Assembly (NCBI GenBank): GCA_020847075.1
Contig: JADLCS010000050.1
Location: 2,026 to 66,025 of the forward strand
DNA: 64,000 bases
Source of the DNA: Gammaproteobacteria bacterium
Lineage (GTDB): Bacteria > Pseudomonadota > Gammaproteobacteria > SZUA-140
Reading direction: 5' to 3'
Shown here in pieces: positions 4,647-47,732 of this stretch. The position numbers were made by a program, and so were the translations under genes. Below the pieces are notes generated by a model that ran no database searches, was not told the origin of the DNA, and saw nothing but the letters and a program-made list of their open reading frames with translations. Positions within the stretch are counted from its first letter, which is position 1. Each line of letters opens with the position of its first letter.

Positions 4647-4844
4647 TTCCTCACCTCGCTGTCGCGACTCTGCGCCATTCGCGGCGCCGCCTCCCTATAT
4701 AAAGACGATCCAGAGGATCTTTTCCGCAACCTCTGGAAAAAAATGTTTTCCGCAGAATCTCTGTCTCGGGCGCGTGACCTCAAGAAATTAATGAGAATGA
4801 TTTGCATTTATAGCGTGAGCATGCCTATACTTGCCGCGTCCGAT

Positions 4845-5381
4845 TCACAGCAAGGGACGTCGCATTCCATGAGCCGATCGAACCACAGCGCCCCCTATCC
4901 CGACGCCACCCCGCTGAAGTCCCTGGCCGCTTCTGAACTCGTCCTGGTCACGACCCTGCGCCTGTGGGTGGCCGCGGCCTGTGGGCCCAACGAACGGAAC
5001 TCCGGGATCCGGTGGTACGACGGCCTCGCCGCAGCGGGGGTGTCGGAAGAAGGCGCCATGGCCTTTCACGAAGGGCGATGGCGCCAGCACTTCCGGCAAT
5101 TGCATCAATACTTCGGCATAGGCCCGCTCGATGCGCTCGCGTCGCCGGTGATTGGACAGCACCCGCTGCGCGACCCGGGTCAGAAATGCGCGCGGCTCCC
5201 GTATGGCAACCGGCTCATCACGGGCCAGCAGTCGGAGGAAGGCATCGTGGGCCAGATCCGCCGCCCGCTGCGGGCATCCCAGCTTCTTGCACAGCCAGGC
5301 CTGCAACCACCCGTGGTGATGGTGGTACAGGCTATGGACGGTTTGCTGCAAGGTGGTTTCGACTTCCGGCATTCCGTGCAC
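4845..5381 (-). pseudogene. Truncated FecI-type ECF sigma factor (region 2 only)
   Basis: Residues about 10-100 (TVHSLYHHHHGWLQAWLCKKLGCPQRAADLAHDAFLRLL...RERIERAYAEVL) align with the full-length FecI at 10919..11449. After APSP (about nt 5075) the sequence has no region-4 helix-turn-helix and looks non-protein-like. Confidence 0.6.
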
Positions 5382-5410
5382 TACCTCAGCATACGCCGGG
5401 CATTATCTTC

Positions 5411-5431
5411 TAATTAATAATTATTCTCATC
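5411..5431 (-). promoter_or_regulatory. Candidate Fur box upstream of the truncated fecI copy
   Basis: AT-rich island. The minus strand reads GATGAGAATAATTATTAATTAG, about 13/19 matches to GATAATGATAATCATTATC. Confidence 0.45.
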
Positions 5432-5491: not shown

Positions 5492-7249
5492 CTAGAATGC
5501 CGTATCCAGCGCAGGGATATGCTCGGCATAGGCCCGCCAGCGCGCGACCGAGCGGCGGTAGATCGGTTGCCGCACCTGCCAGCGGCTCGGGGTCTGCACG
5601 GCGCGTTCGTTCTTGTGAAAATCCAGGCAGCGGGGGTCCCACGGAACGTCGAGGAACCGCAGGATCCGCCGCGCTTGCCCTTCCAGGTCGGCGACGGTGT
5701 CCTCGTACTGCACGTCGAGGATCGGCAATGGCAGCACGGCATGCCAGTGCGCCATCAGGCGGCGGTATTCGCGGGTGAAAAAGGCCAGGGCGTCGAAGTC
5801 GGTGGCGTAGCGCTGGTCAGGATTGAAGTTCTCCATCCAGATGGACAGGGCATTGTCCCGCGCGTCGCGCCGGCAGTGGATCACGCGCGCGTTGGGGAAC
5901 AGCACGGCGGCGAAGGCCAAGTGGAAGAAGTTGAGCGGCGACTTGTCGCTGATGCGACGCCGGCGTCGGGGCGCCCCGTCGCGCAGGGCGCGTAGATATT
6001 CGTGCGCGTGTGCGCGACTCTGCATCTCGTCCAGCGCCGCCGCGGCCTGCCAGGGTTCCCCGTCCTCCGGGGCGCAGCGCGCCGCGATGCGGGACAGGTC
6101 CGGCAGTTCGCCGGCGCCGTGCAGCAGCGGATGCGCGGCGAGGATCTGTTCGGTCAGCGTGGTGCCCGAGCGCGGCAGGCCGACGATGAACACCGGCTGG
6201 TCGTTGCCGAGCCCGAAGCGGCGCCGCTCGTGGAAGAAGTCGGGGGTGTAGGCCGCGATGACGTGCTCCATGCGCGCGACCAGAGCCCCCCGGTCGAGCG
6301 GGCCCGACACCCTGCGCCGCGCGGCGTTCGCCTGCACTCCGGCCTGAGCCGCCGCATCGTGATTGCCACCACGGTCGTGGTACTTGGCCAGCCCGTAGCC
6401 GATCAGCGCCCTCGCCTCGTCCTTGACCTGGTCGTCGCGAACGCTCTGTTCCGCGCGGGCGAGCCATCCCGCCTGTTCATCGCCCGCGGCGCCGGCCGGA
6501 TCGTGATCGCGCAGCAGGGCCAGGTAATTACCCAGCGCCTGGGCGTGATCGGGGCGGCGGCGCAGGACGTTGAGATAGGCGCCGCGCGCGCCGTCCGCCT
6601 CGCCCATGTCCTCCAGCGTGCGGCCCAGCCCCATCCAGCCTTCGATATGATCCGGGTCCATGCCCAGCGACTGGCGGAACAGCGTCTCGGCGCGTTTCAC
6701 CTTGCCGCGCCCGGAAAGCTGCCCGGCCAGCCGGCTGCGCGCCTTCGGCAGGGCCGGGTCGTGCTTGACCGCGCGCTCCAGGCATTCCAGTGCGTCCTCA
6801 AACTGGCCGGCGTCGATCAGCAGCGTGGAGAGGTTCAGATACGTCTCGGCCCGCGCGGGGTCGATCAGCAGCGCATTCTTCAGCGCCGTGAACGCCGCCT
6901 CGCGCCGTCCGAGCTGTTTCATGGCCGTGCCGAGATTGTGCCAGCCGTCGGCGAAGCGCGCGTCGATCTCAACGGATTCCGCGAAACACCGCGCGGCGTT
7001 TTCCATCTCGCCGAGCAGGGCATAGACCCGGCCGAGGTCGGACCAGGAGCGCGGGTCGTCGGGCGCGAGTTCGCAGGCCCGCTGCCCGCTGGCAAGGGCG
7101 TAACCTCGCTCGTCGCCGGCCGCCTGCAACAGCGCGAGGTGCCGGTGCGCCACCGCGTCTCCCGGCGCCTCGGCGATCCTCTCCCGGCAGAACGCCAGCG
7201 CCCCCTGGCGGTCGCCTGCTTCGATCAATGCCTGAAGAGAATCGTGCAT
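5492..7249 (-). CDS. TPR-repeat protein fused to a sulfotransferase domain
   Basis: The N-terminal half has repeated TPR-like helices (ALAFCRERIAEAPGDAVAHRHLALL..., YALLGEMENAARCFAESVEID...). The C-terminal half has the PAPS 5'-phosphosulfate loop GLPRSGTTL and sulfotransferase-like sequence. The start is 13 bp after the receptor gene stop. Confidence 0.8.
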   Translation of the reverse strand: MHDSLQALIEAGDRQGALAFCRERIAEAPGDAVAHRHLALLQAAGDERGYALASGQRACELAPDDPRSWSDLGRVYALLGEMENAARCFAESVEIDARFADGWHNLGTAMKQLGRREAAFTALKNALLIDPARAETYLNLSTLLIDAGQFEDALECLERAVKHDPALPKARSRLAGQLSGRGKVKRAETLFRQSLGMDPDHIEGWMGLGRTLEDMGEADGARGAYLNVLRRRPDHAQALGNYLALLRDHDPAGAAGDEQAGWLARAEQSVRDDQVKDEARALIGYGLAKYHDRGGNHDAAAQAGVQANAARRRVSGPLDRGALVARMEHVIAAYTPDFFHERRRFGLGNDQPVFIVGLPRSGTTLTEQILAAHPLLHGAGELPDLSRIAARCAPEDGEPWQAAAALDEMQSRAHAHEYLRALRDGAPRRRRRISDKSPLNFFHLAFAAVLFPNARVIHCRRDARDNALSIWMENFNPDQRYATDFDALAFFTREYRRLMAHWHAVLPLPILDVQYEDTVADLEGQARRILRFLDVPWDPRCLDFHKNERAVQTPSRWQVRQPIYRRSVARWRAYAEHIPALDTAF

Positions 7250-7262
7250 CTGACTGTTTATA

Positions 7263-9689
7263 TTAGAGATCGAAATTGTAATCCGCCCGCAGCAGCACGG
7301 AACGCGGCGCGCCGAAGAAGTGGCTGTACAGGAAGGCGCTGTTCGGACGCTCGATGTACTTCTCGTCCGTGACGTTGCGCACCAGCAACGAGAAATCCCA
7401 TCCCGGCAGTCCTTTGTAGAAAGCGTGCAGATCGAGGCGCTCGTAGCCGTCGACGAACAGGTTCTCGTCCGTCAGCACGATGCGGTCGCCCACGCTCAGC
7501 AAGGTCGCGCCGAAGCCCAGGCCCTTGAACGTACCACCCTGCAATTCATAGCTAGTATACAGCGAAGACTGGCGCTTGACGGTCCCGCCCGGCGTCTTGC
7601 CGAAATTGGGGTCCTGCCGGTCGATGTATTCAGCATCCAGCCAAGCCGAAGCGGCCCCCACCGTCCAGCCGGGCCGCGGCGTCCCGGTGATCTCGAGCTC
7701 GAGGCCATCGGACCGCTGCAATCCCCCGGAAATGAAAAATTCGGCGGTCGATGGCAAATCGGGATCGGGGTCAGGGATGGGCCGGTTATCGAGTTCCTGG
7801 CGGAATACCGCGACCGTCGCGCCGAGCTGCCCGTCGAACCATTCGCCCTTCAATCCCAGCTCAAAACCCTCGCCGGTCTCGGGATCGAGGATACCATTCT
7901 GGGAGAGATCCAGCACCGGATTGAAGGACTGCGCATAGACGGCGTAACCGGTGAGGCTTTCGTTCAGGTCCTGCACTACACCGATGCGCACGGTCGGCTC
8001 CTTCTTGTCCATCGTGTCACCGGGAGTGGCGGACAGGCCGTTGAACACGCTCTCCAGCTTCGCACGGTCGTAACGGATGCCGAGCAGCAGCTTCGTGCGG
8101 TCGAGCACGCTCAACAGGACCTGCCCGTAGATCGCTTCATTGGAACTGTCCACGCGGCCGTCGTAGGCGCGCGGCAGGCTGCGAGCGGGGATGCTGGCGG
8201 CCGTCGCAAGACTGCCATCATAGATGTTGGCGGTGCCTATCGAAGAGGTGTAGCCGCCCCAGGCAAGAAAATCCCCGCGATTACGCTCTACACCCGCCAG
8301 CAAACGATGCTCGCGGCCAAATGCCTCGAAACGGCCATCCAGTCTCAGCTCACCGGCCCAGGTTACGTCCTCCTGCCCCACCCAACTGGCATACAGGTAG
8401 GTGTTGCCCGCATCGTCGATGCCGTAGCCGTAACTGTCGGAGATGCCCATCAGGCGGTTGCGGCTGCGGTGCAGTTGCAAGGTGGCAAGCCAGCGGTCCG
8501 AGAGTTCGCGGTCCACCTTCACGGTCATATGCAATCCGCTGGCGGTGGAATCCTCGGTGCTCGGCACGCCGAAGAAGAACGAGCGCGGCACATCGGGGGG
8601 CACGAGTTTATTCCCTTCCTGCCGCAGCGCGATACCCAGGCTGGGGATGAATTTGTCGTCCTGATAAATCAGTTGCGCCAGCACGCGCGTCCGGTCGTCG
8701 ATCAGCCACTCCAGGCTCGGGGCGAGCACGGCGCGCCGCGATTCCACACCGTCGATGAACGAGCCGCTGTCCTCGTAGGCGACCGCGGCCTGTCCGCGCA
8801 CGCGTTCATCGGCGTCGAGCGCGCCGGCAGTATCCGCTTCCACGCGAAACGTGTCGAAAGATCCCGCCTGCGCGGCCACCTTCAGCATGGGCTCCGCCTG
8901 CGGCTTTTTCGTCACCATGTTGATGAAGCCGCCGAGCGAACCCTGGCCGTACAGCATCGACGACGGTCCCTTGACCGCCTCGACGCGCTCGAAGGGCGCG
9001 AGGTCGAAATTGTTGTGCTCCCCGCCGGCGGCGAAACCATCGATGCGGATATCACGGCCGCTGTCCAGCTCCTGGCCGCGCAGCGTAAACCCCTCCCCAC
9101 TGCGTGGGGAATTCCCCGCGAAGGTCTTGCTGCCTGCGATGACGCCGGCCGAGAGCTCCAGCGCGCTGCTGAGGTCGAGCGACTGCCGCGCCTCGATCGA
9201 GTCGCGCGTGATGACGCTGATCGATTGCGGGGTCTCGCGCAGCGGCAGGGCCGACTTGGTCGCCGTCGTCTGATACTCCGCCTTCAATCCTCCCGGCTCG
9301 CGCGGCGCATCACCGAAGCGGGCATCCTCTACACCCTCGACGTTCACCGCCGGCAACAGCAGCGCGTCTTCCGGTTCGGGGGTCAGCACGTAACCGGCCC
9401 CGTTCCGGCTCGCGGCGTATCCGCTGCCCTGCAGCAGCGCCGCCAAGCCCTCCTCCGCTCCGTAGACCCCCTGCAGGCCGGGGCTGTTTTTGCCGGACAG
9501 GAGGGTCGCGTCGAACGACAGCACGACGCCCGCCTCGCCGGCGAAACGGCTGAGCACGGCGCCGAGAGGCCCGGCCGGGATATCGTAGGACCGCCGGGCC
9601 TGGTCTTCCGCCGCGGGCTGCGCCGCAACCGGTTGCCCGACAGCGCCCAGGGAAAGCGCAAACGCCACGCCGAACAACGGACTGCGCAT
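7263..9689 (-). CDS. TonB-dependent siderophore receptor with N-terminal signalling (STN) domain, FecA type
   Basis: Signal peptide MRSPLFGVAFALSLGAVGQPVAA. STN-like segment YDIPAGPLGAVLSRFAGEAGVVLSFD. Plug and barrel motifs, with a C-terminal ...LLRADYNFDL ending in an aromatic-x-x residue pattern. Start trimmed to the ATG at 9689. Confidence 0.9.
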   Translation of the reverse strand: MRSPLFGVAFALSLGAVGQPVAAQPAAEDQARRSYDIPAGPLGAVLSRFAGEAGVVLSFDATLLSGKNSPGLQGVYGAEEGLAALLQGSGYAASRNGAGYVLTPEPEDALLLPAVNVEGVEDARFGDAPREPGGLKAEYQTTATKSALPLRETPQSISVITRDSIEARQSLDLSSALELSAGVIAGSKTFAGNSPRSGEGFTLRGQELDSGRDIRIDGFAAGGEHNNFDLAPFERVEAVKGPSSMLYGQGSLGGFINMVTKKPQAEPMLKVAAQAGSFDTFRVEADTAGALDADERVRGQAAVAYEDSGSFIDGVESRRAVLAPSLEWLIDDRTRVLAQLIYQDDKFIPSLGIALRQEGNKLVPPDVPRSFFFGVPSTEDSTASGLHMTVKVDRELSDRWLATLQLHRSRNRLMGISDSYGYGIDDAGNTYLYASWVGQEDVTWAGELRLDGRFEAFGREHRLLAGVERNRGDFLAWGGYTSSIGTANIYDGSLATAASIPARSLPRAYDGRVDSSNEAIYGQVLLSVLDRTKLLLGIRYDRAKLESVFNGLSATPGDTMDKKEPTVRIGVVQDLNESLTGYAVYAQSFNPVLDLSQNGILDPETGEGFELGLKGEWFDGQLGATVAVFRQELDNRPIPDPDPDLPSTAEFFISGGLQRSDGLELEITGTPRPGWTVGAASAWLDAEYIDRQDPNFGKTPGGTVKRQSSLYTSYELQGGTFKGLGFGATLLSVGDRIVLTDENLFVDGYERLDLHAFYKGLPGWDFSLLVRNVTDEKYIERPNSAFLYSHFFGAPRSVLLRADYNFDL

Positions 9690-9885
9690 CGCGCGCCGGA
9701 GAGGCGCTACGCCCGGACCGGTCTGCCCCGGGGAGTGATGGTGGAAAACGGCATGATGGCTCTGCGGCATGATGTCCTCTCGTCGTCGTTCGGCCCGGAC
9801 GGGCGTCTTATCTTTCTAGTCGAACGAAACCTGAAAAGTGACAATCATGGCCAGCGACATGGATCATCGCCCGGCGATCCGGCGG

Positions 9886-10839
9886 CTATCCGCGCGGCCC
9901 GAGGCCGACCCAGTAACGTGTACGGTAGATAGCGCGCACCGGCAGGGCCTGTTCTATCGCCTTCAACGCGATATCGGTATCCCGCACCGGGAAGGCGCCG
10001 GAGATCCGCAGTCCGGCGACCGTCGGGTCGCAGGCCAGCCGGCCGGGGCGATATCGGGCCAGCTCATCGACCAGATCTCCCAGGCGCCAGTCGCTCACGA
10101 CCAGCATTCCGCGCGTCCAGGCCGCCAGCGACTCGTCGGCCACGCGCGGCATCCCCGCCTCGGCGCGGGAAAATACGGCCTGTTGCCGCTCACCGACGAT
10201 CCGCGTGTCCCGGGGGGCATCCACCGGGCGGATCTCCACCGCATGGCGCAGCACCGCCACACTGGTGAACCCCTCCCGCTGACGGACGATGAACCGGGTG
10301 CCGAGCGCGCGCACCTCACCCTGCGCCGTCTCGACGATGAACGGTCGCGCCACGGGCCCCGGATCGACCGCGGTCTCCACCAGAATCTCTCCCGCGCGCA
10401 TCCTGAGCAGACGCCGATCGTCGTCGAAAACGACATCGACCGCCGTGGCGGTATTCAGCATCAGACTGGAACCATCGGGCAGGACGATCCTGCGCTGCTC
10501 TCCCCCCGCGGTATGGTGATCGTCGAACCAGCCCCGGCTCCGTCCCATACCGGCGCCGGTAAACGCGCCGAGCATCATGGCGATACCGAGACCTTTCAGC
10601 GTGTCGCGCCGGGTGAGCCGGGATCGGGCGGGACCGGCGATCCTGAATGTCGCCGCGGATACCTTTCCGGGCAACGACTGCATCCTGCATTGCAGCGCCT
10701 CCACCTGATCCCAGGCCCAGCGATGATCGGGATGGGCTTCGACCCAGTCGCGCCAGGCCCTGCGGTCCGCCTCGGTCGCTCCGCCGGAGCCGAGGCGGGC
10801 AAACCAGCGGGCGGCCTCACCCAGGGCGGTCTTGTTCAT
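9886..10839 (-). CDS. fecR: FecR-type anti-sigma factor / iron sensor
   Basis: MNKTALGEAARWFARLGSGGATEADRRAWRDWVEAHPDHRWAWDQVE is a typical FecR N-terminus, followed by a single TM segment and a periplasmic domain. It lies between fecI and the receptor gene. Confidence 0.88.
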   Translation of the reverse strand: MNKTALGEAARWFARLGSGGATEADRRAWRDWVEAHPDHRWAWDQVEALQCRMQSLPGKVSAATFRIAGPARSRLTRRDTLKGLGIAMMLGAFTGAGMGRSRGWFDDHHTAGGEQRRIVLPDGSSLMLNTATAVDVVFDDDRRLLRMRAGEILVETAVDPGPVARPFIVETAQGEVRALGTRFIVRQREGFTSVAVLRHAVEIRPVDAPRDTRIVGERQQAVFSRAEAGMPRVADESLAAWTRGMLVVSDWRLGDLVDELARYRPGRLACDPTVAGLRISGAFPVRDTDIALKAIEQALPVRAIYRTRYWVGLGPRG

Positions 10840-10918
10840 GTGTCTCCAGGGCCCAACTCAAGGTCGGAAATGAATCTTTGCGATGAAACATCCCGTGGTC
10901 ATTCCCGCGTAATGGGCG

Positions 10919-11449
10919 CTAGACGCCCGCGCCCAGCCTGAGCAGCAGGCAGCGTTCGACGGCCCGCGCCATGTATTTGTTCACCGAACTCACGGAAACA
11001 CCCAGCCGGCGCGCTATCTCGGCATAGCTCAAGCCCTCCAACTGCGACATCAGAAAGGCCTGCTTGGGTCTCGCGCCCATCCCGTCCAGCATCGCATCGA
11101 TTTCGCACAGGGTCTCGATAATGATCGAACGCTGTTCGGGTGAACCGGTCTCCGCCTCGGGGATCAGGGCGAGCGCCTCGAGATAGGCCCGTTCCAGGGT
11201 TCTGCGCCGGAAATAATCGATCATCACGCGCTGCGCCACCGTAGCGAGGTAATCGCGCGGCTCACGGATGTCCGCCACCCTGCACGCGGCATCGGGCGCC
11301 GCGATCAGGCGGACGAAGGTATCGTGCGCGAGATCAGCCGCGCTGTGCGCGCAACCCAGTTTCCTGCGCAACCATCCCAGCAACCACCCGTGGTGATCGC
11401 TGTAGAGGGTATGCATGGTGTCGCGCAGACTGTCCTCGGATGCCGCCAT
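10919..11449 (-). CDS. fecI: FecI-type ECF sigma factor
   Basis: Region 2 (HHGWLLGWLRRKLGCAHSAADLAHDTFVRL) and region 4 HTH (LEGLSYAEIARRLGVSVSSVNKYMARA) are both present. Start taken at the internal ATG at 11449. Confidence 0.9.
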   Translation of the reverse strand: MAASEDSLRDTMHTLYSDHHGWLLGWLRRKLGCAHSAADLAHDTFVRLIAAPDAACRVADIREPRDYLATVAQRVMIDYFRRRTLERAYLEALALIPEAETGSPEQRSIIIETLCEIDAMLDGMGARPKQAFLMSQLEGLSYAEIARRLGVSVSSVNKYMARAVERCLLLRLGAGV

Positions 11450-11504
11450 GATGCGTCCGTTCGTCGTGCGGCAAAGGCGATCGTCGCCCCGCCATGACAA
11501 ATAT

Positions 11505-13201: not shown

Positions 13202-13492
13202 TCAGGCCTTTCCGCCCGGCCCGGTGCGATATCCGGCGACGAACCCCCGGAGGAATCCGTCCAGCGAATACCCAGCCTTCGTGGCAAGCCACACCCCCGC
13301 CGCGACGAGTCCGAGCAGGATCGCGATCTGAGGCCCCAGGGCCTGGTACAACCCATAGCCGATCGCGCCGCCGACGATCACAATCAGGCAGATCATCAAC
13401 AGGTAACCGACCACCGTAGATACCAGATCGAAATTCGTCACCAGAAACAGGATCAGCAGGATAGCCAGCCCCGCCGGAAAAAGAAGATTCAT
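13202..13492 (-). CDS. Small integral membrane protein, unknown function
   Basis: 96-aa ORF starting MNLLFPAGLAILLILFLV..., with three hydrophobic helices. Confidence 0.5.
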   Translation of the reverse strand: MNLLFPAGLAILLILFLVTNFDLVSTVVGYLLMICLIVIVGGAIGYGLYQALGPQIAILLGLVAAGVWLATKAGYSLDGFLRGFVAGYRTGPGGKA

Positions 13493-13876
13493 GGTGTACC
13501 GCTTCCCCGCATGGTCGATAGACCCGTTCATTATGAACAAAGCCAAGTAAATATGTCCATAAACATGAAGATATATATGGACCGATGCATGGCCCGACGG
13601 GACCGGGGACACCTGTACGACCTGCCCGATCTTCCTCGAATCACTATCGGATACAGCATCATCCCACTCACTAAGAATTTTTAAGAAGCGTGAAATCCCG
13701 ATTCACGCGACCCGGTCACGGGCACGGTCTTTCGAGCTCGACATCACACAAATCGTGTGCAGAAAGCTACTGTTTTCACAATCATTATTCGGGACACCGG
13801 GCTAATCATTCCGTATGAGATGCCGCTATATCTAGCTGAGAAACATGTGTGCGTATACATACAGGAGAGTATCTCA

Positions 13877-14902
13877 ATGAAAAAAACTACAGCACTAACC
13901 ATGGTGTCCGCCGCGTCCTTATTCGTGGGCGGCGCGGCCATGGCGGCTCCCATCGGGGGGTATGACGCATGGACGGTCTCGAGCGGAACCATCACGGCCA
14001 CCTGCCCCGCGGGTTATACCTGCGCCAATCTGGATGCCACCGGTAACGGAATTCTGCAACAGCGGATCACGGACGCTGTGGATACCACGGTCTCCTATTT
14101 CCGCACCATCGTGACCAACGAGGGCGCCACCGCGACCGACCTGGCCGCCGTCCAGGCGCTGGGTTTCCGGAATGAAGGCATGATCGGCGCGCAGGACGGC
14201 TCGGGCAACTATGTCAACCGCAGCATCATCAAGGCGGGCACCCAGCTTGGCAACGATGCGATGTCGACCATGGCGGAAGTCGGTTCGGGGACCCTGATCG
14301 GCATCGCCGATTTCATCGCCGACCAGGAACAGGGACTGGGCGCGAATAACAACGCCCGCAACATGGACTGGCACTTCCAGGAAGGCGATACCAGCTATCT
14401 GGAGTTGAACGCTTACTCCACCGGTGGGCTCGCCGGTGGCGGTGCCGGCAATGAGGGTACTCTCACGGTGCGCCGCGCGGGCGGGCTGTCCGAAGGCGGC
14501 ACCCTGACCCTCGATCCGGGCGGCTCACAGGAACAGACCCTGGCCTATGCGGCCGGCAACGCCGTCACGGCGGTATGGTTGACCCAGGCGGCCTCGGGCG
14601 GCGGTTCTTACACGAACCGGACCCTGGGCCTGCAGCGCTACACCGTGGTGACCACCACGGGTCAGGCGCAGAAAACCAATGTCGGCGGCACCTCGATATC
14701 GGCAAGCAACGCGGACGGTAATGGCAATTTCGTAATCGACGTCTCCGCGGGCAATGATGCCGCAGTCACGGGAACACAGTTCGGATGGAACACGGCGCTG
14801 TTCGGTACTCAACCGCAGGAGTACTTCACCAACTCCGTCAGCAGCGGAGTGAACGCCCCGCCCGCCCCGGGCACCTACGCCAACGATTACCTCTTGCCCT
14901 GA
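13877..14902 (+). CDS. Secreted protein of unknown family, paralog A
   Basis: AGGAGA Shine-Dalgarno 8 nt before the ATG at 13877. Sec signal peptide MKKTTALTMVSAASLFVGGAAMA|AP. Shares blocks with the next ORF (see findings). Confidence 0.8.
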   Translation: MKKTTALTMVSAASLFVGGAAMAAPIGGYDAWTVSSGTITATCPAGYTCANLDATGNGILQQRITDAVDTTVSYFRTIVTNEGATATDLAAVQALGFRNEGMIGAQDGSGNYVNRSIIKAGTQLGNDAMSTMAEVGSGTLIGIADFIADQEQGLGANNNARNMDWHFQEGDTSYLELNAYSTGGLAGGGAGNEGTLTVRRAGGLSEGGTLTLDPGGSQEQTLAYAAGNAVTAVWLTQAASGGGSYTNRTLGLQRYTVVTTTGQAQKTNVGGTSISASNADGNGNFVIDVSAGNDAAVTGTQFGWNTALFGTQPQEYFTNSVSSGVNAPPAPGTYANDYLLP

Positions 14903-14939
14903 CGGCACACCGAACATCGCATTGCGATAGGAGAACAAC

Positions 14940-15866
14940 ATGAATCGTAAGTATCTATTCAAGGCGGCAATGGCTACGATGGGGGGACTTTTCGTGTCGA
15001 GTGCCGCCCTGGCCGGCTCCGCCATCCTGCACGATGCCCCGCTGGGCTTCGACCAATACTCGGTCACCAACGGCGTCGTCACCGATACCTCGGCCGAATG
15101 CTCGACCACCTGGACCTGCGTGACGCTGGATGCCACCAGCGCCGGAATGTTCATGCAGCAGATCACCGATCCCGGCACCGGCGTCTCCTTCATCCGCACC
15201 ATCACGGTGGAGGAAAATGCCAACGGAACACCCGCATCCGGCCTGGCGTTCTGGCAGGAAACCCAGACCTACGCCAGCGGCGTGAACAGCAACAACGTCG
15301 CCGTCAGTCAGGGGATCGTGGACGGCGGGATGAACTTCACCGTCAAACTCTTCGAGGCCGCGTTCAAGGACGGCGGCGATCTCACCATCCCGACGAGCGG
15401 CGGCGGTGGCGCGGATATGTACATGAACCAGCAGGTCGCCGCACAGACCTTCCAGCAGGATGGCGTGAACGGCAACGCGCGCCAGCGCATCGACCAGAAT
15501 CTGGGCGTTGCGGCGGTCGGCAAGTTCTCCTACGCCTCGATCGACGGCGCGGCGTTCATGCCCACGGCCGGTGGCACCCTGGGCGGTACGGTCATGCCGG
15601 CCCTCGCCTATGCCGCGACCGATGGCCTGAGCGTAGTGTGGATAGGCGCGGACATGCCGGGGAATGCCTCGGCCAGCGCGCGTCAATTCGGTTATCAGCG
15701 TTACAGCAACTGGGGCGCGGTGGCCGTGACGGCTCCCGGCACCAATGCCGCGACGGGCACCTCCAGCTACATGGCGCTCGGATCGGCCGCGGCCTTCACC
15801 GACAATGGATCGTGGGACTGGGACGCCTCGCTCTGGGATCTGGGCCTCGCACCGACCGGGCCTTGA
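14940..15866 (+). CDS. Secreted protein of unknown family, paralog B
   Basis: AGGAGA Shine-Dalgarno. Signal peptide MNRKYLFKAAMATMGGLFVSSAALA|GS. Blocks shared with paralog A: TC..LDAT..G...QQITD...VS[YF][FI]RTI, LAYAA, QRY. Confidence 0.8.
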   Translation: MNRKYLFKAAMATMGGLFVSSAALAGSAILHDAPLGFDQYSVTNGVVTDTSAECSTTWTCVTLDATSAGMFMQQITDPGTGVSFIRTITVEENANGTPASGLAFWQETQTYASGVNSNNVAVSQGIVDGGMNFTVKLFEAAFKDGGDLTIPTSGGGGADMYMNQQVAAQTFQQDGVNGNARQRIDQNLGVAAVGKFSYASIDGAAFMPTAGGTLGGTVMPALAYAATDGLSVVWIGADMPGNASASARQFGYQRYSNWGAVAVTAPGTNAATGTSSYMALGSAAAFTDNGSWDWDASLWDLGLAPTGP

Positions 15867-15939
15867 TATAAAAGGGGCGACAAGGATGTAGCCCTGGAGA
15901 AACGGTCGGTTCCGTCCGGCAGATCGGCGGGACCGGCCG

Positions 15940-16812
15940 TCACACTCTCAAGGATAGACTCTCGTCGGCTTCATAGCCGATCTTTTCCATGGCGTCCGCG
16001 ATCATCTCGGAGAGCTCGGCGCGCAATTGCCGGGTAACCTCACCCGCACCTCTATCGATGGAACCCGCCCGGAAGAACTCCGGATTCCTGGACACCGACC
16101 GCATGCGTTTGATATCCGTCTCCGCAACGATCCTGTCGAGGATCGCACCGTCCGCTTCCGCGCCCAGAAAGGAAAAAATCCCGCGCAGGGTCTCCGCACG
16201 CCGGGTCACCAGATCCTCGTAGTGGACCATATACACGTTGTCGCGCCCCGCGGAGAAGGCGCACCAGCGATCGACGTGCTGAACAAAGATCCGCGCGGAC
16301 TCGCGCAGCCAGCCGGCCAGGTCGCCATGCTGGGTCACTATCTCGCTGTGACGCGGATCGTTTTCCTCCTGCGCCAGACGCAGGTTGTGATGCCAGGCCG
16401 ATAATCCCTGGTCTATCGGATTACGGAAGATCGCGACCAGCCTGGGCTGATCGAACAGCTCATTGAAAAACTCGAGGTTCGCGATGATGTTGTTGTCGTT
16501 GGCCCCGACGATCGTCTTGCCTCCGGCCGCGTCGCACATCATGGTCTCGAGCGCAGAGCGGAATACGGCGTTCACGCTCCGGCCACCCACCAGGGCCGCC
16601 CCCTGCCCGCCCGTACGCCGGTCGTACAGTTGCAGTACCTTGTTGAACTCACCGAACACCCACTTGAGCCCCTCGTAAAGAGAGCGGCAATCGTATTCGG
16701 AGGGGCAGGAGATCCGAGGGTGCAGATTCAGGGCGCGCTGCAGCAGGGTCGTCCCTGACTTGGGAGGGCCGAAACAGAAAAACAGTCGAATCTGTCGGGA
16801 TTCTTTTTTCAA
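15940..16812 (-). CDS. Stand-alone sulfotransferase
   Basis: FGPPKSGTTLLQRALNLHP is a 5'-PSB loop and FRNPIDQGLSAWHH resembles a 3'-PB region. 290 aa with no signal peptide. Confidence 0.8.
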   Translation of the reverse strand: MKKESRQIRLFFCFGPPKSGTTLLQRALNLHPRISCPSEYDCRSLYEGLKWVFGEFNKVLQLYDRRTGGQGAALVGGRSVNAVFRSALETMMCDAAGGKTIVGANDNNIIANLEFFNELFDQPRLVAIFRNPIDQGLSAWHHNLRLAQEENDPRHSEIVTQHGDLAGWLRESARIFVQHVDRWCAFSAGRDNVYMVHYEDLVTRRAETLRGIFSFLGAEADGAILDRIVAETDIKRMRSVSRNPEFFRAGSIDRGAGEVTRQLRAELSEMIADAMEKIGYEADESLSLRV

Positions 16813-17341
16813 TACTCCGACTACCCAGCTGGTATGAGCTATATATATCGAGGTATTACATTGATACGACAGATATTGTCAGTGGACGCCGAAAAGGCCT
16901 GCTGGGTTCCCTGTTTTTTTCCGCACCGATAGCGATGCATGCCGGCGCCTCATATTTCCCGGGCCAGCGTTCACCAAGTGTGTCGCCGTGCTCAGGATGT
17001 GCGAGGGGACATCCAAGTCAACCCTCGCGCCTTGCGCTGGCGACAGCCATTGGTGCCCCGGTACGCCCTGCGTCCGGCGGCACTGCGCGCCGCCTACCAC
17101 AATGGCTTGACGCCGCCATGTTCGCTCCTTACTCACTCCGTTCGTCCCTCGCTCACGCGACTACCGGCGGCTTCTCGCCCTCGCTTCGCTCTCCATGGCT
17201 CGTCGAGAGAGGGGTCTCTATACAGGGGGGAACTGTAGTTCTTCTGAACCGAATGGCGCGGAAAAGGAGCCGAATATCGGCTTGACCGAACTCGCGGAAA
17301 TGCTGGCGCCTGTTTGGGACAGGCGGGCGAAGGGGCGAAAA

Positions 17342-17387: not shown

Positions 17388-17464
<77 letters not shown>

Positions 17465-17521
17465 ACCTGAACTTTGAGGGGGCTATAGTACAGAACCCGG
17501 GCGCTGTTATCAAGCCGTCGC

Positions 17522-36592: not shown

Positions 36593-36732
36593 GGTCTACC
36601 TGCGCCACCGAAACGGGGAGGAAACGCACATGGCTTTGTCCATATTTCCGCAATCCAGGGCAAAAAAGGGATACGACATAATCTACCAGAAAACCGCATA
36701 AACCGGGGATAGACCGCGGTCTCGGTGCCTCA

Positions 36733-36938
36733 GCCGTCAGTCATTACCGGCCTCCAGGATCTGCCCGGCAACACCCGCCTCCGGTTCCGGGCCACGTGCC
36801 AGACAGGAGCGAAAATGGCCTTCCCGCGCGGGGGCCAGCAACAGGTGCACATGGTTGGTCATCAGCACATAGACGTAGATCGCGCCGCCATGTTTCTCCG
36901 CTTGCTTCCGCAGGGTATCCGGGCAACGGGTTTTACCC
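36733..36938 (-). pseudogene. Remnant of a RAYT/IS200-like (Y1, HUH) transposase
   Basis: Minus-strand translation gives ...LRKQAEKHGGAIYVYVLMTNHVHLLLAPARE..., the HUH motif. The N-terminus is cut by the IS end at 36939, and a premature stop follows about 30 codons after HUH. Confidence 0.6.
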
Positions 36939-36989
36939 TGACCGTACCCCTGATTCTGTACTAATTATGATGTGGGAGACTTCATCATA

Positions 36990-37810
36990 TCAGGCCGTGA
37001 TCCGGGCAAATACTGCAGGCGGCTGGCTCCCTAGAGAACGGTGCGGCCGGACCTCATTGTAGTGGACGCGCCACGCCTCAATCGTCCTGCGAGCATCCCC
37101 CAAGTCATGGAACCAATGCAGATTAAGGCACTGATCCCGAAACTTCCCGTTGAAGCTCTCGACGAAGGCATTCTGCGTCGGCTTGCCGGGCTGAATAAAA
37201 TGTAATCTGACGCGGGTTCTCTGACTCAGAAGAACAGCGCTTTCCCTGTAAACTCAGGGCCATTGTCGCTGACGATCACCCGGGGCAGTCCCCGGCGGCT
37301 GGCGAGCTCATCGAGATAACGCGCAACCCGCGCTCCGGAGATCGAGACATCCACAATCTGCCCGACGCACTCGCGGGAATAGTCATCCACAATATTGAGA
37401 ACCCGAATCCGTCGGCCGCCCGCCAGCTGGTTGCTCACGAAGTCCATTGACCAGCGCTCGTTCAGCCGACCCGGGATGGTCATCGGAACCCGTGGCCTGG
37501 CCAGCTTCTTGCGGTGCTCGGTGCGCACCTGCAGGCCTTCCTCGCGGTAGAGCCGATATGTCCTCTTGCGATTCTGGACCAGTCCTTCGGCCTTGAGCAG
37601 GCCGTGCAAGGTCGGATAACCATACCTTGGATACTGCTCGGCCAGTGTCTTCAACCGGGTCCGCAGACACTCGTCACTGCGCCGGCACGAGGTGTACCGG
37701 TATACCGACCGGGGCACCCCCGCCAATCGACACGCCCGCCGCTCGGAAAGGCCTAGCGTCACCATCAGATGATCTGCCGCCTTCCTGCGCACGGCAGGCG
37801 TTACCATTTT
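36990..37810 (-). pseudogene. IS3 transposase OrfB (DDE integrase core), frameshifted
   Basis: LSERRACRLAGVPRSVYRY...WSMDFV...NIVDDYSRE...VSDNGPEFTGKAL, then a stop. The C-terminus HFIQPGKPTQNAFVESFNGKFRDQCLNLHWF...RPHRSLG continues in another frame, so an indel lies near 37226-37245. Confidence 0.85.
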
Positions 37811-38066
37811 CCCCGGGCGATCTCCTTCAGTGCCACGTTGTCGAGCAGACTGTCCGCGAGCAGACGCTTGAGCTTCGCATTCTCCTGCTCCAAGGCGCGC
37901 AATCGCTTGGCATCCGAGACCTCCAGACGCTGTACTTGGCCTTCCAGCGGTAGATCGACTGCTCACTCACCCCGTGACGTCTCGACAAATTCGGTACGGA
38001 GGCGCTAGCCTCATTCTCTTTCAGAATGCTGATGATCTTTTCTTCGGTGAACTGCTTGCGCTTCAT
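37801..38066 (-). pseudogene. IS3 transposase OrfA (HTH), frameshifted
   Basis: MKRKQFTEEKIISILKENEASASVPNLSRRHGVSEQSIYRWKAKY, then the frame is lost. The expected LEVSDAKRLRALEQENAKLKRLLADSLLDNVALKEIARGKW* is in the adjacent frame, so an indel lies near 37935. Confidence 0.8.
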
Positions 38067-38141
38067 CCTGGGACCCCCCCTCCAGCGTAATTATAAGGAA
38101 ATCCCACATCGATGATGGCCCGGATTACGGGGGTACGGTCA

Positions 38142-38216
38142 ATCTAAGCCAGCTTCTGCTGTGGCGAATAACAGTGCAGCCATCATGACTAGCACAGTGA
38201 TTAAATTGTATTTCAC
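38142..38216 (-). pseudogene. 5' stub of a second cassette ORF (signal-peptide-like), cut by the IS
   Basis: AGGGAG Shine-Dalgarno, then GTG at 38216: VKYNLITVLVMMAALLFATAEAGLD, which runs directly into the IS terminal repeat. Confidence 0.35.
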
Positions 38217-38235
38217 AGATATTCTCCCTATTGGC

Positions 38236-38299
38236 GCCTAACGACCGGCTTCAGGCGCGCGGCGCTTGCGCCGCGTCGCTCTGCAAGCCATAGTTAGCA
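38236..38299 (-). other. Integron attC recombination site
   Basis: The minus strand reads TGCTAAC(R'')-TAT-GGCTT[G]CAG[A]GCG[A]CGCGGC-loop-GCCGCGCGC-CTGAAGCC-GGTC-GTTAGGC(R'). It is an imperfect palindrome with three bulged bases. R' fits GTTRRRY. Confidence 0.7.
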
Positions 38300-39135
38300 C
38301 CTGCACTTGAATCTGCGGTTGGTGGGATTAGAAGGCAAGTCGGCCGAAGAAGGAGCAGATCCTCCCGAATCTCCTCATCAAGCGTCGCCATCGCCCCAAC
38401 CAATGAACCGTGAATCACATGATAACTGTCCAGCATCGAGTGTTCAGCCTTCTCAAGAAATACCCCCCCTTGAGAATCAGGAACCTTACCTTGATACCGA
38501 CCGAACAGGCGAAGGCTGCATAGGATCTGGCACTGCACCCATCGAAAGAATGCCCACTCAGGCGTAATTCTGTCGGGGCGAGGGGCATTTCGGGGAGCGT
38601 CCTCGTCCAAAAAGGAAGCGTAGATGCCCCTTATGAAATCTACATCTGTGGCGGTTCTCTGTCGGGCCTCCTTGATCGCGTTCGGAAACTCCTTCCACTC
38701 AATGCCGTTGATCTCAGGGAAAAACTGATGCACTATTGACCATCGCTCGATAAAACCACGCGTATCATCGCCAATTGTGCTTTTCCATTCCTCAAGATAC
38801 TGGAGCATTTGGCCATCGGGGATGAAAGATCCGTCCCGTAGTTTGTTACTGAATTGGAAAGCATCGTTCAACCGATGATCGACCACCGGCGTGCATGCGA
38901 TTTCCTGCTCTATCTCGAAGCGCAGAAGCGATCCGACGTTTGGTATAAGGTACACGGGGTTGGTTTTGTCAGGTAACTTCGAAAAGCAGCGCTGCTGACT
39001 TTCCGGTCGCGTTGTTATCAACTCGAAGAATAGTTCGTCGGATACCAATACGACATAATCTTCGCACAGCGCTCGCACAGCCTCAGTAGACGCTCCGTCG
39101 AGAAAGCTCTTATCCAATATAACGCTGATTTTCAT
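38251..39135 (-). CDS. Integron cassette ORF 2, unknown function (PIN-like N-terminus by motif only)
   Basis: 294-aa ORF with visibly lower G+C. Starts MKISVILDKSFLDGAS...VVLVSDELFFEL. Its last 15 codons lie inside the attC. It begins 18 nt after ORF 1. Confidence 0.7.
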   Translation of the reverse strand: MKISVILDKSFLDGASTEAVRALCEDYVVLVSDELFFELITTRPESQQRCFSKLPDKTNPVYLIPNVGSLLRFEIEQEIACTPVVDHRLNDAFQFSNKLRDGSFIPDGQMLQYLEEWKSTIGDDTRGFIERWSIVHQFFPEINGIEWKEFPNAIKEARQRTATDVDFIRGIYASFLDEDAPRNAPRPDRITPEWAFFRWVQCQILCSLRLFGRYQGKVPDSQGGVFLEKAEHSMLDSYHVIHGSLVGAMATLDEEIREDLLLLRPTCLLIPPTADSSAGANYGLQSDAAQAPRA

Positions 39136-39153
39136 GGGTCAGGTGTTACGCGG

Positions 39154-39681
39154 CTACATTCTCTTCCCAAAGCCATCGGTCTGATAGTGCCCAGCGCCAT
39201 AACAGTACACACAACTTTCTACTTCTCCTCTGCAGAAACAAACAACCGTATGTCTTTCATCTCTTCTTCTTTGTAGCTCCTCATCTGACATGGACACAGG
39301 GGCGGGCGTTGCTGCGCCAGAATCCGGTTTCGGTTCAGATTCCTGGTGGGTGGAAGCAATCTTCGCTGCAAGGGATTTGTTGTTTCTTATAAACTCAATC
39401 ACCCACTCGGTACTTATCAGTCTTCCCTTGTATTTGTCAGTCAACTCCGATGTCCGATGCCGGTATAGCTTGTAATGGTTCCACGGACGCGGGTCAAGTC
39501 CAGACCAACTTGCTTCAACTTCAAGTAGCACTCGCGTCCTAACACCCTTAGGGCAAATCTTTAGGAGCCGTCCGTCGGGCCAATATTCGTCTCCTTGGTA
39601 ATGGGCTTTGGAGCCAATGATAAAGGCTTCCATACCATTCTCCTCGGCAATTGTGCGAACTGTTTCTAGGAGTTTTTCCAT
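39154..39681 (-). CDS. Integron cassette ORF 1, unknown function (C-terminal CxxCxGxG zinc-ribbon motif)
   Basis: 175-aa ORF with lower G+C. C-terminal VVCFCRGEVESCVYCYGAGHY. An alternative start at 39633 (MEAFIIGS) has a GAGGAG Shine-Dalgarno. Confidence 0.7.
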   Translation of the reverse strand: MEKLLETVRTIAEENGMEAFIIGSKAHYQGDEYWPDGRLLKICPKGVRTRVLLEVEASWSGLDPRPWNHYKLYRHRTSELTDKYKGRLISTEWVIEFIRNNKSLAAKIASTHQESEPKPDSGAATPAPVSMSDEELQRRRDERHTVVCFCRGEVESCVYCYGAGHYQTDGFGKRM

Positions 39682-39685
39682 ATCA

Positions 39686-39798
39686 TGCTAACAGTTAATT
39701 AGACGGAGTCGGTGATATTGGTGATAGGCGGATTCTATGTAGCATCGGCATGCCTCCCCTCTTCGCCCGATTTCCAGTAGGATACCCTTAACCCTTTC
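39686..39798 (-). other. attI region with the attI/cassette junction GTTAGCA
   Basis: The 117-bp intI-cassette spacer. The minus strand has AACTGTTAGCATGAT immediately before the first cassette ATG. GTTAGCA (39692-39686) is the exact reverse complement of the attC R''. Confidence 0.5.
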
Positions 39799-41211
39799 AT
39801 GGATGAAAGCCGAGGTGTCGTCATGGATGATGATCAGCGCGCCGCCTGTGAACGGCGGTTTTGGGCCCGTTATGCAAATATCATTATTGGTCAAGGCATT
39901 AAACCTTCTCTGGTACGCTGGCACGTGCTGCGGGCGAAGTCTTTCATCAAGACCTTTCCGGGCAGGCGTCTGGCCGATCTCGGGCCGGACGACGTCGCCG
40001 CCTATCTGACCCAGGCAGGCCGTCAGCAGACGGTGGAGCCCTGGCAATTCCGGCAAATCGTCGATGCTATACAGATTCTGTATAGCATTGTTCGCACGGA
40101 ATGGGCGACAAGCTTCGACTGGGACTACTGGCGCGATTCCGCACAGGCGCTGGGCGCCCAGCATGCCACGACGGCGCGAGAGGTCACGCCGGTCACACCC
40201 GGGGAATTTGCCGAGCGGCTCGGAGATACACGCTTCGCGCCGCTGATCCGGGCACACCTGGAGTTATTCGCAACCGTCGCCGCCGTGATCCGCACACGGA
40301 ATCTGGCGTTCCGCACCGAGCAGACCTACATGAACTGGATGTGCCGCTTCATGATTCACCATGGCGGACGTTCACCGGCCGAGCTCGGCGGACCCGAGGT
40401 GGCGGAATTCCTCCAGCACTTAGCGGTCAGACGCAACGTCGCGGCAAGCACGCAGAATCAGGCGCTGAATGCGCTGGTGTTCCTCTATGATCAGGTACTG
40501 CAAAGGCCCTTGGGTGATATCGGCGCCTTTGTCCGCGCCAAACGATCCCGGCGCATCCCGACGGTCCTGACCCGCGCCGAGGTCGGGCGCATTCTGGCCG
40601 AGCTGCACGGCCTGCAGGAATTGATCGTTTCGCTGCTCTACGGGACCGGCATGCGTCTCATGGAAGGTCTGAGACTGCGGGTGCAGGATATCGACTTTGG
40701 CCGCAACCTGATCGTGGTCCGCCACGGGAAGGGCGACAAGGATCGCGTCGCGCCCCTTCCCGCCACCCTCGTCGCCGGGATCAAGGGGCACCTTGCAGAG
40801 GTCAGGGCCTTGCATGAGCGTGATGTTGCGGAAGGATTCGGCGAGGTTTTTCTGCCGCACGCGCTTGCGACGAAATATCCGAACGCCGCCCGGGAGTGGC
40901 GCTGGCAGTTCGTGTTTCCGAGCGGCCGGCTGTCAGTCGACCCGCGCAGCGGCAAGACGCGACGGCATCATCTTCACGAGAGCGCCGTCCAGAAGGCGGT
41001 TAAATCGGCAGCGCGGCGCGCAGGGATAGCAAAAAAGGTCGGCTGCCATACCCTGCGCCACAGTTTCGCGACGCATCTCCTAGAGCGAGGACAGGATATC
41101 CGCACCGTGCAGGAGCTGCTGGGACATGCGGATGTGTCCACGACAATGATCTACACCCACGTACTCAATCGTGGCGGTATGGGTGTGCTCAGCCCGCTCG
41201 ACGCAGACTGA
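39799..41211 (+). CDS. intI: Integron integrase IntI with an N-terminal extension of about 145 aa
   Basis: [20 protein letters not shown]...[15 protein letters not shown]; the Arg in [13 protein letters not shown]; the IntI-specific insertion [47 protein letters not shown]; and [12 protein letters not shown]...[22 protein letters not shown] (H-R-H-Y). Confidence 0.9.
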
Positions 41212-42848: not shown

Positions 42849-42865
42849 ATCTCTCCTCGAAACCG

Positions 42866-42915
42866 AAAAACCGGGGACAGACCCCGTTTTCCGGCGTAAA
42901 GGGGTCTGACCCCTA
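42866..42915. repeat. Two GGGGnCAGACCCC-type hairpins between prfB and lysS
   Basis: AAAAACCGGGGACAGACCCCGTTTT (42866-42890) and TAAAGGGGTCTGACCCCTA (42897-42915). Confidence 0.6.
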
Positions 42916-47134: not shown

Positions 47135-47163
47135 GCGAATCTCTCTTTCCTCGTCCCGCCGCG

Positions 47164-47601: not shown

Positions 47602-47732
47602 GAATCGCCCTCCTCCCTGAGTCGCGTCCACCCGCGTTCCCCGTTTGTCATGCCGGGCGCGTAGCGCTAGACTACGGTCAACCGCACGGATCGCGGCCGC
47701 GGCCTCCCTGATCGCCGCCGGGCATCGAACCC

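Follow-up and report, generated by a model that had tools for sequence, protein, structure and literature searches.

Two tandem exported paralogues of an undescribed protein family in a gammaproteobacterial genome

Introduction

What might a bacterium do with two adjacent genes whose products appear to be exported, resemble each other, and match nothing in the sequence databases? This question is raised by genes A and B, at positions 13,877 to 15,866 of a 64,000-nucleotide (nt) stretch of DNA from a Gammaproteobacteria bacterium of the GTDB lineage SZUA-140 (GenBank assembly GCA_020847075.1, contig JADLCS010000050.1, positions 2,026 to 66,025 of the forward strand); the whole stretch, at this length, is called the window below. 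An earlier note, made from the sequence alone, had described the two genes as encoding tandem paralogous secreted proteins that it could not place in a known family. The safest statement we can make is that A and B are an operon-encoded pair of exported, acidic beta proteins of an undescribed family, probably stabilised by disulfides and probably acting together. Beyond that we propose, tentatively and at somewhat below an even chance, that they form an exported hetero-oligomer that is a structural or glycan-binding, non-enzymatic component of the cell surface or envelope. Dark exported families are common in metagenomes, but the genetics of pairing and fusion and the links that recur around the genes lift this one above the ordinary. 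The family adjoins two poorly understood gene sets, the TPR-GT41/sulfotransferase proteins and an RND-DUF1302-DUF1329 module, and the role of A and B could illuminate how uncultured Gammaproteobacteria of activated sludge and sediment build and decorate their surface.

Two paralogous genes with export signals

The pair and the DNA immediately around it are laid out as follows.

13613..13876, + strand: upstream intergenic region of A, AT-rich, presumed promoter and 5' untranslated region; AGGAGA at 13863-13868
13877..14902, + strand: gene A, precursor of 341 amino acids (aa); signal peptide, residues 1-23 (nt 13877-13945); C43/C49; C-terminal motif FGWNTALFGTQP
14903..14939, + strand: A-B spacer, 37 nt; palindrome ATCGCATTGCGAT at 14916-14928; AGGAGA at 14929-14934
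14940..15866, + strand: gene B, 308-aa precursor; signal peptide, residues 1-25 (nt 14940-15014); C54/C60; C-terminal motif WDWDASLWDLGLAP
15902..15940, no strand assigned: GC-rich hairpin between the convergent 3' ends of B and a sulfotransferase gene, terminator-like, without a clear U-run

The longest open reading frame (ORF) containing A opens at GTG 13757; we prefer ATG 13877 as the start, because the AGGAGA ribosome-binding site lies 8 nt before it and because the homologues of A all begin at the equivalent ATG, with MKK or MNK. B starts at ATG 14940, and its own AGGAGA lies 5 nt upstream. Signal peptides were assigned by inspection together with a hydropathy rule (basic n-region, hydrophobic h-region, A-x-A site). 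That of A is MKKTTALTMVSAASLFVGGAAMA, with predicted cleavage before AP (...GGAAMA/AP), and that of B is MNRKYLFKAAMATMGGLFVSSAALA, with predicted cleavage before GS (...SAALA/GS); both have an A-x-A site and are of Sec type. The ribosome-binding sites and Sec signal peptides that the earlier note had read in both genes are there, and on sequence grounds both proteins qualify as substrates of general Sec-dependent export. Each mature protein has exactly two cysteines, spaced C-x5-C near the N-terminus, and the composition is rich in Gly, Ala, Thr, Ser and Asn, as had been noticed at the outset, very low in Lys, and acidic, with an isoelectric point (pI) of 4.1. A ends in ...ANDYLLP and B in ...LGLAPTGP, and the two contain 2 and 4 N-x-S/T sequons, respectively.

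The two genes, co-oriented on the + strand and 37 nt apart, encode proteins that align by BLASTP with 30% identity over 272 columns (E=7e-16), and they cross-score at about 50 bits against hidden Markov models (HMMs) built from each paralogue's own close homologues. This similarity is far beyond chance and marks A and B as paralogues, as had been proposed. Every motif block listed at that time is found in both: G[YF]D...C-x5-C...LDAT...QQITD...VS[YF][FI]RTI, the Gly-rich run, LAYAA....V.W, QRY and the Trp/Phe-rich C-terminus. The GC content at third codon positions resembles that of neighbouring genes: it is 0.83 in B and, for A, 0.76 over the longer reading frame opened by GTG 13757. Compared with the orthologous pairs of three other contigs, the ratio of nonsynonymous to synonymous substitution rates (dN/dS) is 0.10-0.25 at dS 0.6-1.2 (0.14-0.25 for A, 0.10-0.22 for B), values by which A and B are judged to be protein-coding genes under purifying selection. 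That same selection is what speaks for their expression.

A family beyond current databases

Neither protein has a family in Pfam-A or PHROGs (E<=1 or 0.1), an NCBIfam scan of both returned a 12-bit noise match only, and against PDB sequences phmmer and profile hmmsearch reached best E values of 0.08-0.3, over short stretches only. Relatives fare no better: none of 131 single-domain relatives matches Pfam at E<=0.01, and 37 two-domain relatives yielded one chance-level match only, to Lustrin_cystein (E=0.0038, below threshold). When 5.8 billion proteins were searched by word index, A had 34 relatives and B had 25, every one from Gammaproteobacteria metagenome-assembled genomes (MAGs) or metagenomes, and the same kind of search with the wide alignment A2 added few more. 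A profile search run exhaustively over 1.84 billion representatives of clusters drawn at 50% identity gave 324 clusters at E<=1e-3, or 180 at the stricter E<=1e-10, all of them unnamed and from metagenomes or MAGs. We are dealing, in other words, with an exported family under selection, 324 clusters in extent, without a Pfam model, a name or a detectable structural relative. Every naming source calls its members 'hypothetical protein', save for one JGI label, 'BolA-like', which no domain match backs and which is evidently wrong. One match, P0129 (2809 aa, 35 matched stretches), proved to be a translated simple repeat (...RGLLYQQIQSPRVLAD...) caught through the QQI motif; it is a false positive and was left out of all family counts. 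A phage or plasmid origin was rejected, as viral contigs and plasmids held no relatives, and in the literature on TPR-GT41-sulfotransferase systems we found no description of the family.

Signs of the familiar routes to the surface are likewise missing. There is no lipobox ([LVI][ASTVI][GAS]C) at the cleavage site of A or B, whose signal peptides contain no cysteine; no C-terminal hydrophobic helix of the PEP-CTERM kind in A, B or 135 relatives, nor a PEP-CTERM match in Pfam or NCBIfam; and no Pfam Autotransporter or HemolysinCabind match, with no GGxGxD nonapeptide repeats visible in A or B. The earlier note had seen neither lipobox, PEP-CTERM, autotransporter nor RTX motif, and Pfam and NCBIfam scans and sequence inspection agree with it for A and B.

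The anatomy of the family was counted in 135 full-length representatives. A signal-peptide-like hydrophobic N-terminus is present in 127, in keeping with the original description of the proteins as secreted, and a lipobox-like string in 1/135. The Cys pair occurs in 119 (spacing 5 in 77, spacing 6 in 27), and pI ranges from 4.05 to 5.18, with a median of 4.14. A C-terminal motif of approximate form [GP]-P-W-x-W-[DN]-x-x-x-F-G-x-x-P-x-F recurs and many proteins stop directly after it; the last residue is P in 53/135, F in 31/135 and W in 9/135. Some members have an extra Gly-rich tail ending in W. Others have a second putative disulfide loop (Cys pair) at the C-terminus, a feature that also points to an oxidising location outside the cytoplasm. 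Near-invariant in the whole set are A23 (in the signal peptide), G37, C43, C49, G58, I78, E100, Q150, W304, G310 and P313, while R76, W234, Q253 and W304 are invariant or nearly so in the close A/B family.

Structure prediction improved with the size of the alignment. The first AlphaFold model, from 58 sequences, was weak, with a predicted local distance difference test (pLDDT) score of 64.6, and its Foldseek matches (beta-supersandwich domains, YidC P1, leukocidin S) were noise. The second model of A, from 131 sequences, has a pLDDT of 80.4 and a predicted template-modelling score of 0.80, and is all-beta with about 16 strands, most of them short (3-6 residues); residues 30-100 exceed pLDDT 93, the C-terminal part is confident and the middle less certain. 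Foldseek with this model reached at best E 0.9, with template-modelling (TM) scores <0.2, in the PDB (PsbP, porins, VDAC and Tom40, all noise) and E 1.1 in BFVD. The earlier note had asked for Foldseek on a predicted structure as a check, and its statement that the family is unrecognised stands after searches of Pfam, NCBIfam, PHROGs and PDB sequences and after Foldseek against PDB and BFVD. As far as these tools reach, protein family and fold are unassigned in Pfam, NCBIfam, PHROGs, PDB and BFVD, although the domain may yet be very remotely related to a known beta fold; we claim no new mechanism.

Size, acidity, a G/T/N/A-rich composition and the lack of cysteines beyond one pair would suit porin-like integral outer-membrane beta-barrel proteins, as would the relatives that end in Phe or Trp and the porins, VDAC and Tom40 among the noise-level matches. 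However, the predicted strands are too short to cross a membrane, for which at least 9 residues are needed, TM scores to barrels stay below 0.2, and no Pfam family of outer-membrane proteins matches. In addition, F-G-x-x-P-x-F contains Pro and is no beta-signal, and the last residues of A and B are ...YLLP and ...PTGP. We regard a porin-like identity as very unlikely.

Ordered pairs and fusions

The family is also regular in how its genes are arranged. HMMs of A type and B type assigned every gene of every pair unambiguously, the window's B scoring as B, and the order is always A then B, also in a clade whose proteins are 45-55% identical to those of the window. Wherever downstream sequence exists, a B gene follows the A-type gene after 24-45 nt, except at locus L008. 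Pairs are multiplied into arrays, double in L001 and triple in L005, L010 and L034, and the MAG SJ336 holds at least 4 family loci. Fusions are frequent as well: 37/150 best representatives are 650-760 aa long with two domain copies, each copy keeping its own Cys pair in 33 of the 37, and L028 has two such two-domain genes in tandem. Solo genes are found at L018-L025. The first domain of a fusion (D1) is closer to the D1s of other proteins than to its own second domain (D2), which implies that the heterotypic duplication is old and that the halves keep distinct identities. An attempt to equate A with D1 and B with D2 by orthology did not succeed, so duplication may have occurred more than once.

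Gene order, co-occurrence and fusion are classic genomic signs of physical co-function. Strict A-then-B pairs, arrays of pairs and fusions of diverged copies point to a defined protein-protein partnership, and by these genomic measures A and B would belong to the functional class of obligate heteromeric paralogue pairs and may be expected to interact. The 37-nt spacer is too small for a promoter, so the two genes are almost certainly co-transcribed. Directly before the ribosome-binding site of B the spacer contains the perfect 13-nt palindrome ATCGCATTGCGAT, which is kept in L007, L002 and L029, despite the divergence of the remaining spacer in L002, and does not occur at other types of locus; its role could be to fix how much A is translated relative to B, or to serve as the binding site of a regulator.

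Staphylococcal leukocidins offer a precedent for such partnership, in which two tandemly encoded secreted paralogues co-assemble into a pore. The gene anatomy of bi-component leukocidins/gamma-haemolysins (PF07968), whose two components must act together, is strikingly like that of A and B, with tandem genes for Sec-exported, all-beta paralogues of about 300 aa and about 30% identity, and Panton-Valentine leucocidin S chains were among the noise-level Foldseek matches of the first model. Those matches, however, had E values of about 3, probabilities of 0.02-0.03 and TM scores of about 0.1, and they were gone with the better model. There is no sequence or fold similarity to leukocidins, and no Pfam match to Leukocidin or a toxin family. 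A and B have a predicted disulfide loop, all members of the family are strongly acidic, and they sit in several copies per genome among the housekeeping genes of wastewater and other environmental bacteria. The common single-chain fusions would moreover hinder the alternating assembly of a pore. That A and B are a leukocidin-like, bi-component beta-barrel pore-forming toxin is, in our judgement, extremely unlikely.

Gene neighbourhoods

Two sulfotransferase genes lie near the pair in the window.

5492..7249, - strand: TPR-sulfotransferase fusion, 585 aa; Pfam TPR families and PF13469 (1.2e-44); 6.6 kb upstream of the pair
15940..16812, - strand: stand-alone sulfotransferase, 290 aa; PF13469 (7.7e-20) and PF00685 (6.4e-16); convergent with B

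On one side the pair is flanked by genes for a CNNM/CorC transporter and a small membrane protein, and on the other by the stand-alone sulfotransferase gene, tRNA-Met, acpS, pdxJ, recO and era; the syntenic locus L002 reads rimP-...-CNNM-96 aa-A-B-tRNA-Met-acpS-pdxJ-recO-era. In L007, the closest relative, a 77%-identical orthologue of the stand-alone sulfotransferase occupies the same place, and the enzyme may be a functional partner of A and B. The tie of the TPR-sulfotransferase to the pair, which runs through the TPR-linked enzymes beside other family members, is weak.

The earlier note had also drawn attention to AT-richer flanks. The GC content is indeed lower there, 0.47-0.51 at 13450-13899 and 0.54 at 16600-17049 against about 0.64 in the surroundings; these stretches on both sides of the pair are ordinary intergenic DNA and no evidence of an island. 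A genomic island was in fact rejected because the syntenic relative L002 has the pair in the same place. The last 60 or so nt before A are near-identical in L007 and partly kept in L002, and a scan for sigma-70 promoters on the + strand upstream of A gave no convincing consensus. Beyond B, a fold of 15860-15945, which contains the hairpin, has a minimum free energy of -39.8 kcal/mol (z = -4.2 against shuffles).

At a second type of locus the order is ychF-...-A-B-histidine kinase-response regulator, followed in L001, L006 and L032 by a gene for a 213-aa sulfotransferase (PF03567, 29 bits against a threshold of 22) that is unrelated to the sulfotransferase of the window. The ychF-type loci L001 (about 9940-9970), L006 and L009 have a conserved inverted repeat, ACTGTTATA-N9-TATAACAGT, about 35-60 nt before the start of A, and at these loci the histidine kinase/response regulator pair follows. 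A degenerate copy precedes the second pair of L001, and the repeat is not found upstream of A in the window. At a third type (L005, L010, L012 and L030, L012 being from the same MAG as L007), in clades 45-71% identical to the window's A, genes for MMPL/RND, DUF1302 and LolA_like/DUF1329 proteins stand immediately next to the pairs in divergent orientation; contigs L031 and L034 are short, and the LolA_like/DUF1329 gene alone is visible beside A before they end. Downstream at this type there is either a 198-aa gene with an M10 peptidase gene, or genes for FG-GAP proteins and SEC-C-TPR-GT41 glycosyltransferases. Orthologues of the latter adjoin genes of the family in L005, L010 and L030 and also at L016, a two-domain locus, where the orthologue (46-48% identity) precedes the two-domain gene and five GT41-domain genes are present. 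At L018 a TPR-methyltransferase gene precedes the solo gene. The earlier note had recommended profiling the family's phylogenetic distribution and neighbourhood; the profile bore out an unknown family of Gammaproteobacteria MAGs and metagenomes, and neighbours recur at some loci and not at all of them. The associations with sulfotransferases, GT41 enzymes and the module are suggestive, not universal.

The third locus type could be read to mean that A and B serve the MMPL/RND-DUF1302-DUF1329 (LolA-like) system as accessories in the periplasm or outer membrane, where they would bind or bridge hydrophobic or cell-wall cargo in place of the BNR/Ycf48-like protein of Pseudomonas. In Pseudomonas, cofitness links DUF1302 and DUF1329 genes to those for RND and BNR proteins, and export of an envelope component has been proposed (bioRxiv 10.1101/2020.07.04.188060); DUF1302 and DUF1329 proteins also occur in outer-membrane vesicle material (PMC3110197). 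The same three families, DUF1302, DUF1329 and RND (MMPL), are found beside A-B pairs at this one recurrent locus type, across its clades and, in part, on the short contigs. No BNR gene was seen beside the module, and the 321-aa gene that follows MMPL in L030 has no Pfam match. On the other hand, A and B are unrelated in sequence to all four Pseudomonas proteins, the module is absent from the window, and it does not occur within 10 kb of the window pair or of the ychF-type pairs. Solo and two-domain members mostly lack it too, L026 having only a DUF1329-like gene 9.6 kb off, and a transporter subunit needed in fixed stoichiometry would not usually be encoded in arrays of up to three pairs. Inherited synteny could also account for the adjacency. 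We consider this reading unlikely.

The recurrence of sulfotransferases and glycosyltransferases nearby, together with the secreted M10 metalloprotease and FG-GAP proteins downstream at some loci, may instead suggest secreted enzymes or lectins that act on sulfated or glycosylated polymers, as lyases, hydrolases or binders of the cell's own exopolymer. The predicted all-beta fold would allow this, as would the near-invariant R76, W234, Q253 and W304 of the close family and E100, Q150 and W304 of the wide set. But there is no match to CAZy-related Pfam families or to PDB folds, an obligate, ordered A/B pair and multi-pair arrays are atypical of secreted enzymes, and the neighbouring transferases are of cytoplasmic types, which would make a glycan and not degrade one. 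We think enzymes or lectins of this kind quite unlikely.

Several further neighbours deserve mention in their own right. In the 45%-identity clade, a gene for a secreted 197/198-aa protein without a Pfam match and an overlapping M10 (matrixin-type) gene come directly after the A-B arrays, and the metalloprotease could be a processing protease for the pair.

L005 11997-13408: 197/198-aa gene and M10 gene
L010 14374-15770: 197/198-aa gene and M10 gene
L034 7640-9036: 197/198-aa gene and M10 gene
L036 2118-3523: 197/198-aa gene and M10 gene

Small divergent upstream genes were considered as a conserved partner and rejected, the 96-aa membrane protein of the window and L002 being unrelated to the 136-aa protein of L022 and L023. 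The large genes downstream of two-domain loci were likewise rejected, with the exception of the DUF7948/SBBP proteins of L017 and L026. These are secreted beta-propeller-repeat proteins of 930 and 936 aa (L017 2676-5468 and L026 14632-17442), 28% identical and encoded downstream of a two-domain member on unrelated contigs; in L017 a gene for an OmpA-like barrel follows. A tRNA-Met(CAT) gene lies near the A-B pair in two locus types (window 17389-17465, - strand; L002 12364-12440; L007 6119-6195; L006 9066-9142; L001 5791-5867). It is downstream on the opposite strand in the window, L002 and L007, and upstream on the same strand in L006 (about 670 nt before A) and L001; its proximity may be coincidence or a trace of pair copying.

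A possible surface assembly

Our tentative proposal of a surface or envelope hetero-oligomer would work as follows. From the two-gene operon A-B, two acidic, all-beta paralogues of about 30 kDa would be made and exported by Sec, each having an aromatic C-terminal motif and, close to the start of the mature chain, a short C-x5-C disulfide loop. Outside the cytoplasm A and B would assemble with each other, and the hetero-oligomer might be, for example, a surface layer, a matrix or an outer-membrane-associated coat. Glycan- or sulfate-modifying enzymes could have a part in its production or anchoring, as could the MMPL/RND-DUF1302-DUF1329 outer-membrane module at what is probably the ancestral locus. 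The disulfides, the hetero-oligomer, a role in structure or at the surface and whatever ties there are to sulfation or glycosylation are all steps that we infer. We favour a structural or glycan-binding role because pairs are repeated, both within arrays and across several loci of a genome; because strong ribosome-binding sites and long AT-rich leaders precede the genes, which often stand alone among housekeeping genes; because the composition is typical of surface proteins; and because the recurrent neighbours make sulfated or glycosylated structures and outer-membrane components.

Several observations weigh against this proposal. Hetero-oligomerisation is argued from gene order and fusions. 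The central third of the A model (residues 105-190) is only moderately confident, and Foldseek against PDB and BFVD gives no structural homologue that would back a lattice, lectin or other fold class. The polar residues R76 and Q253 of the close family, and E100 and Q150 of the wide set, would also fit a binding or catalytic site. As for the neighbours, the closest syntenic locus, L002, has no sulfotransferase, and the solo loci L020-L025 and the two-domain loci L014 and L028 show none of the recurrent neighbours. TPR-GT41 genes may merely be abundant in these genomes, and part of the recurrence may be synteny inherited within one bacterial order.

Gram-negative surface-layer proteins anchored to lipopolysaccharide (LPS) resemble A and B in being acidic, Cys-poor, abundant-looking exported proteins encoded by lone genes with long upstream regions. 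RsaA of Caulobacter is an LPS-anchored surface-layer protein that leaves the cell by type I secretion. NpdA of Delftia is likewise a Gram-negative surface layer dependent on LPS (PMC3110197), and a dependence of A and B on glycan would be plausible from the neighbouring sulfo- and glycosyltransferases. Surface-layer proteins, at 60-100 kDa, differ however from A and B, which are about 30 kDa, of two types, with a Sec signal and no sequence similarity; a lattice built of A and B would be hypothetical. A second comparison concerns glycosylation: the GT41 enzyme HMW1C modifies the exported surface protein HMW1 (PMC3012730, PMC3983070), and Ogt of Synechococcus, also GT41, modifies pilin (PMC9306852). 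In both systems the gene of an exported protein stands beside that of a cytoplasmic GT41 enzyme, which is also the case for the family in L005, L010, L016 and L030. Unlike the HMW1 locus, the window has sulfotransferases and not GT41, and it has no two-partner secretion gene; sequons are few, so an HMW1-like enrichment in N-glycosylation sequons is not supported, and modification of A and B is hypothetical.

A bolder form of the proposal, which we think improbable, would have A and B make up a two-subunit surface coat or glycan-binding layer of new fold in uncultured Gammaproteobacteria of wastewater and sediment. Enzymes encoded nearby, namely the sulfotransferase, SEC-C-TPR-GT41 and TPR-methyltransferase proteins, would add sulfate, glycan or methyl groups to its subunits. 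Through its SEC-C motif the enzyme might be recruited to preproteins on their way to Sec export; alternatively, the glycan so modified might act as the anchor. If true, the bacterial envelope would have a glycoprotein or sulfoprotein system of a new class, with ties to the similarly obscure RND-DUF1302-DUF1329 module.

Other features of the window

Between rimP/nusA and the CNNM gene the window has a block, 5492-11500, that is extra relative to L002. It is a FecIRA-type surface-signalling unit that adjoins the TPR-sulfotransferase (5492-7249, - strand).

4743-5417: ORF of no assigned function, 224 aa, counted with the extra block
7263-9770, - strand: TonB-dependent receptor with STN domain
9886-10839, - strand: FecR-like anti-sigma factor
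10919-11500, - strand: extracytoplasmic function (ECF) sigma factor

A second region, 36600-41211, has low GC (0.50-0.52 at 38-40 kb against about 0.66) and is probably an integrated mobile element beside an aminoacyl-tRNA synthetase gene.

37226-37966, - strand: truncated insertion sequence (IS)-type transposase (rve and HTH_21)
38251-39135 and 39154-39681, - strand: two ORFs without a Pfam match
39799-41211, + strand: tyrosine recombinase, domains from residue 156, start probably over-called
41349-43034, - strand: class II (Asp/Lys/Asn-type) aminoacyl-tRNA synthetase, tRNA-synt_2

The RecJ ORF at 44343-47198 (- strand) is 951 aa long, with the DHH domain from residue 449 and a GC content of 0.73-0.77 in its 5' part, and it likely has an over-called start or includes a separate upstream gene. 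Finally, the ORF at 47645-48910 (+ strand) has a type IV pilin N-methylation motif at residue 211, and its true start is probably internal.

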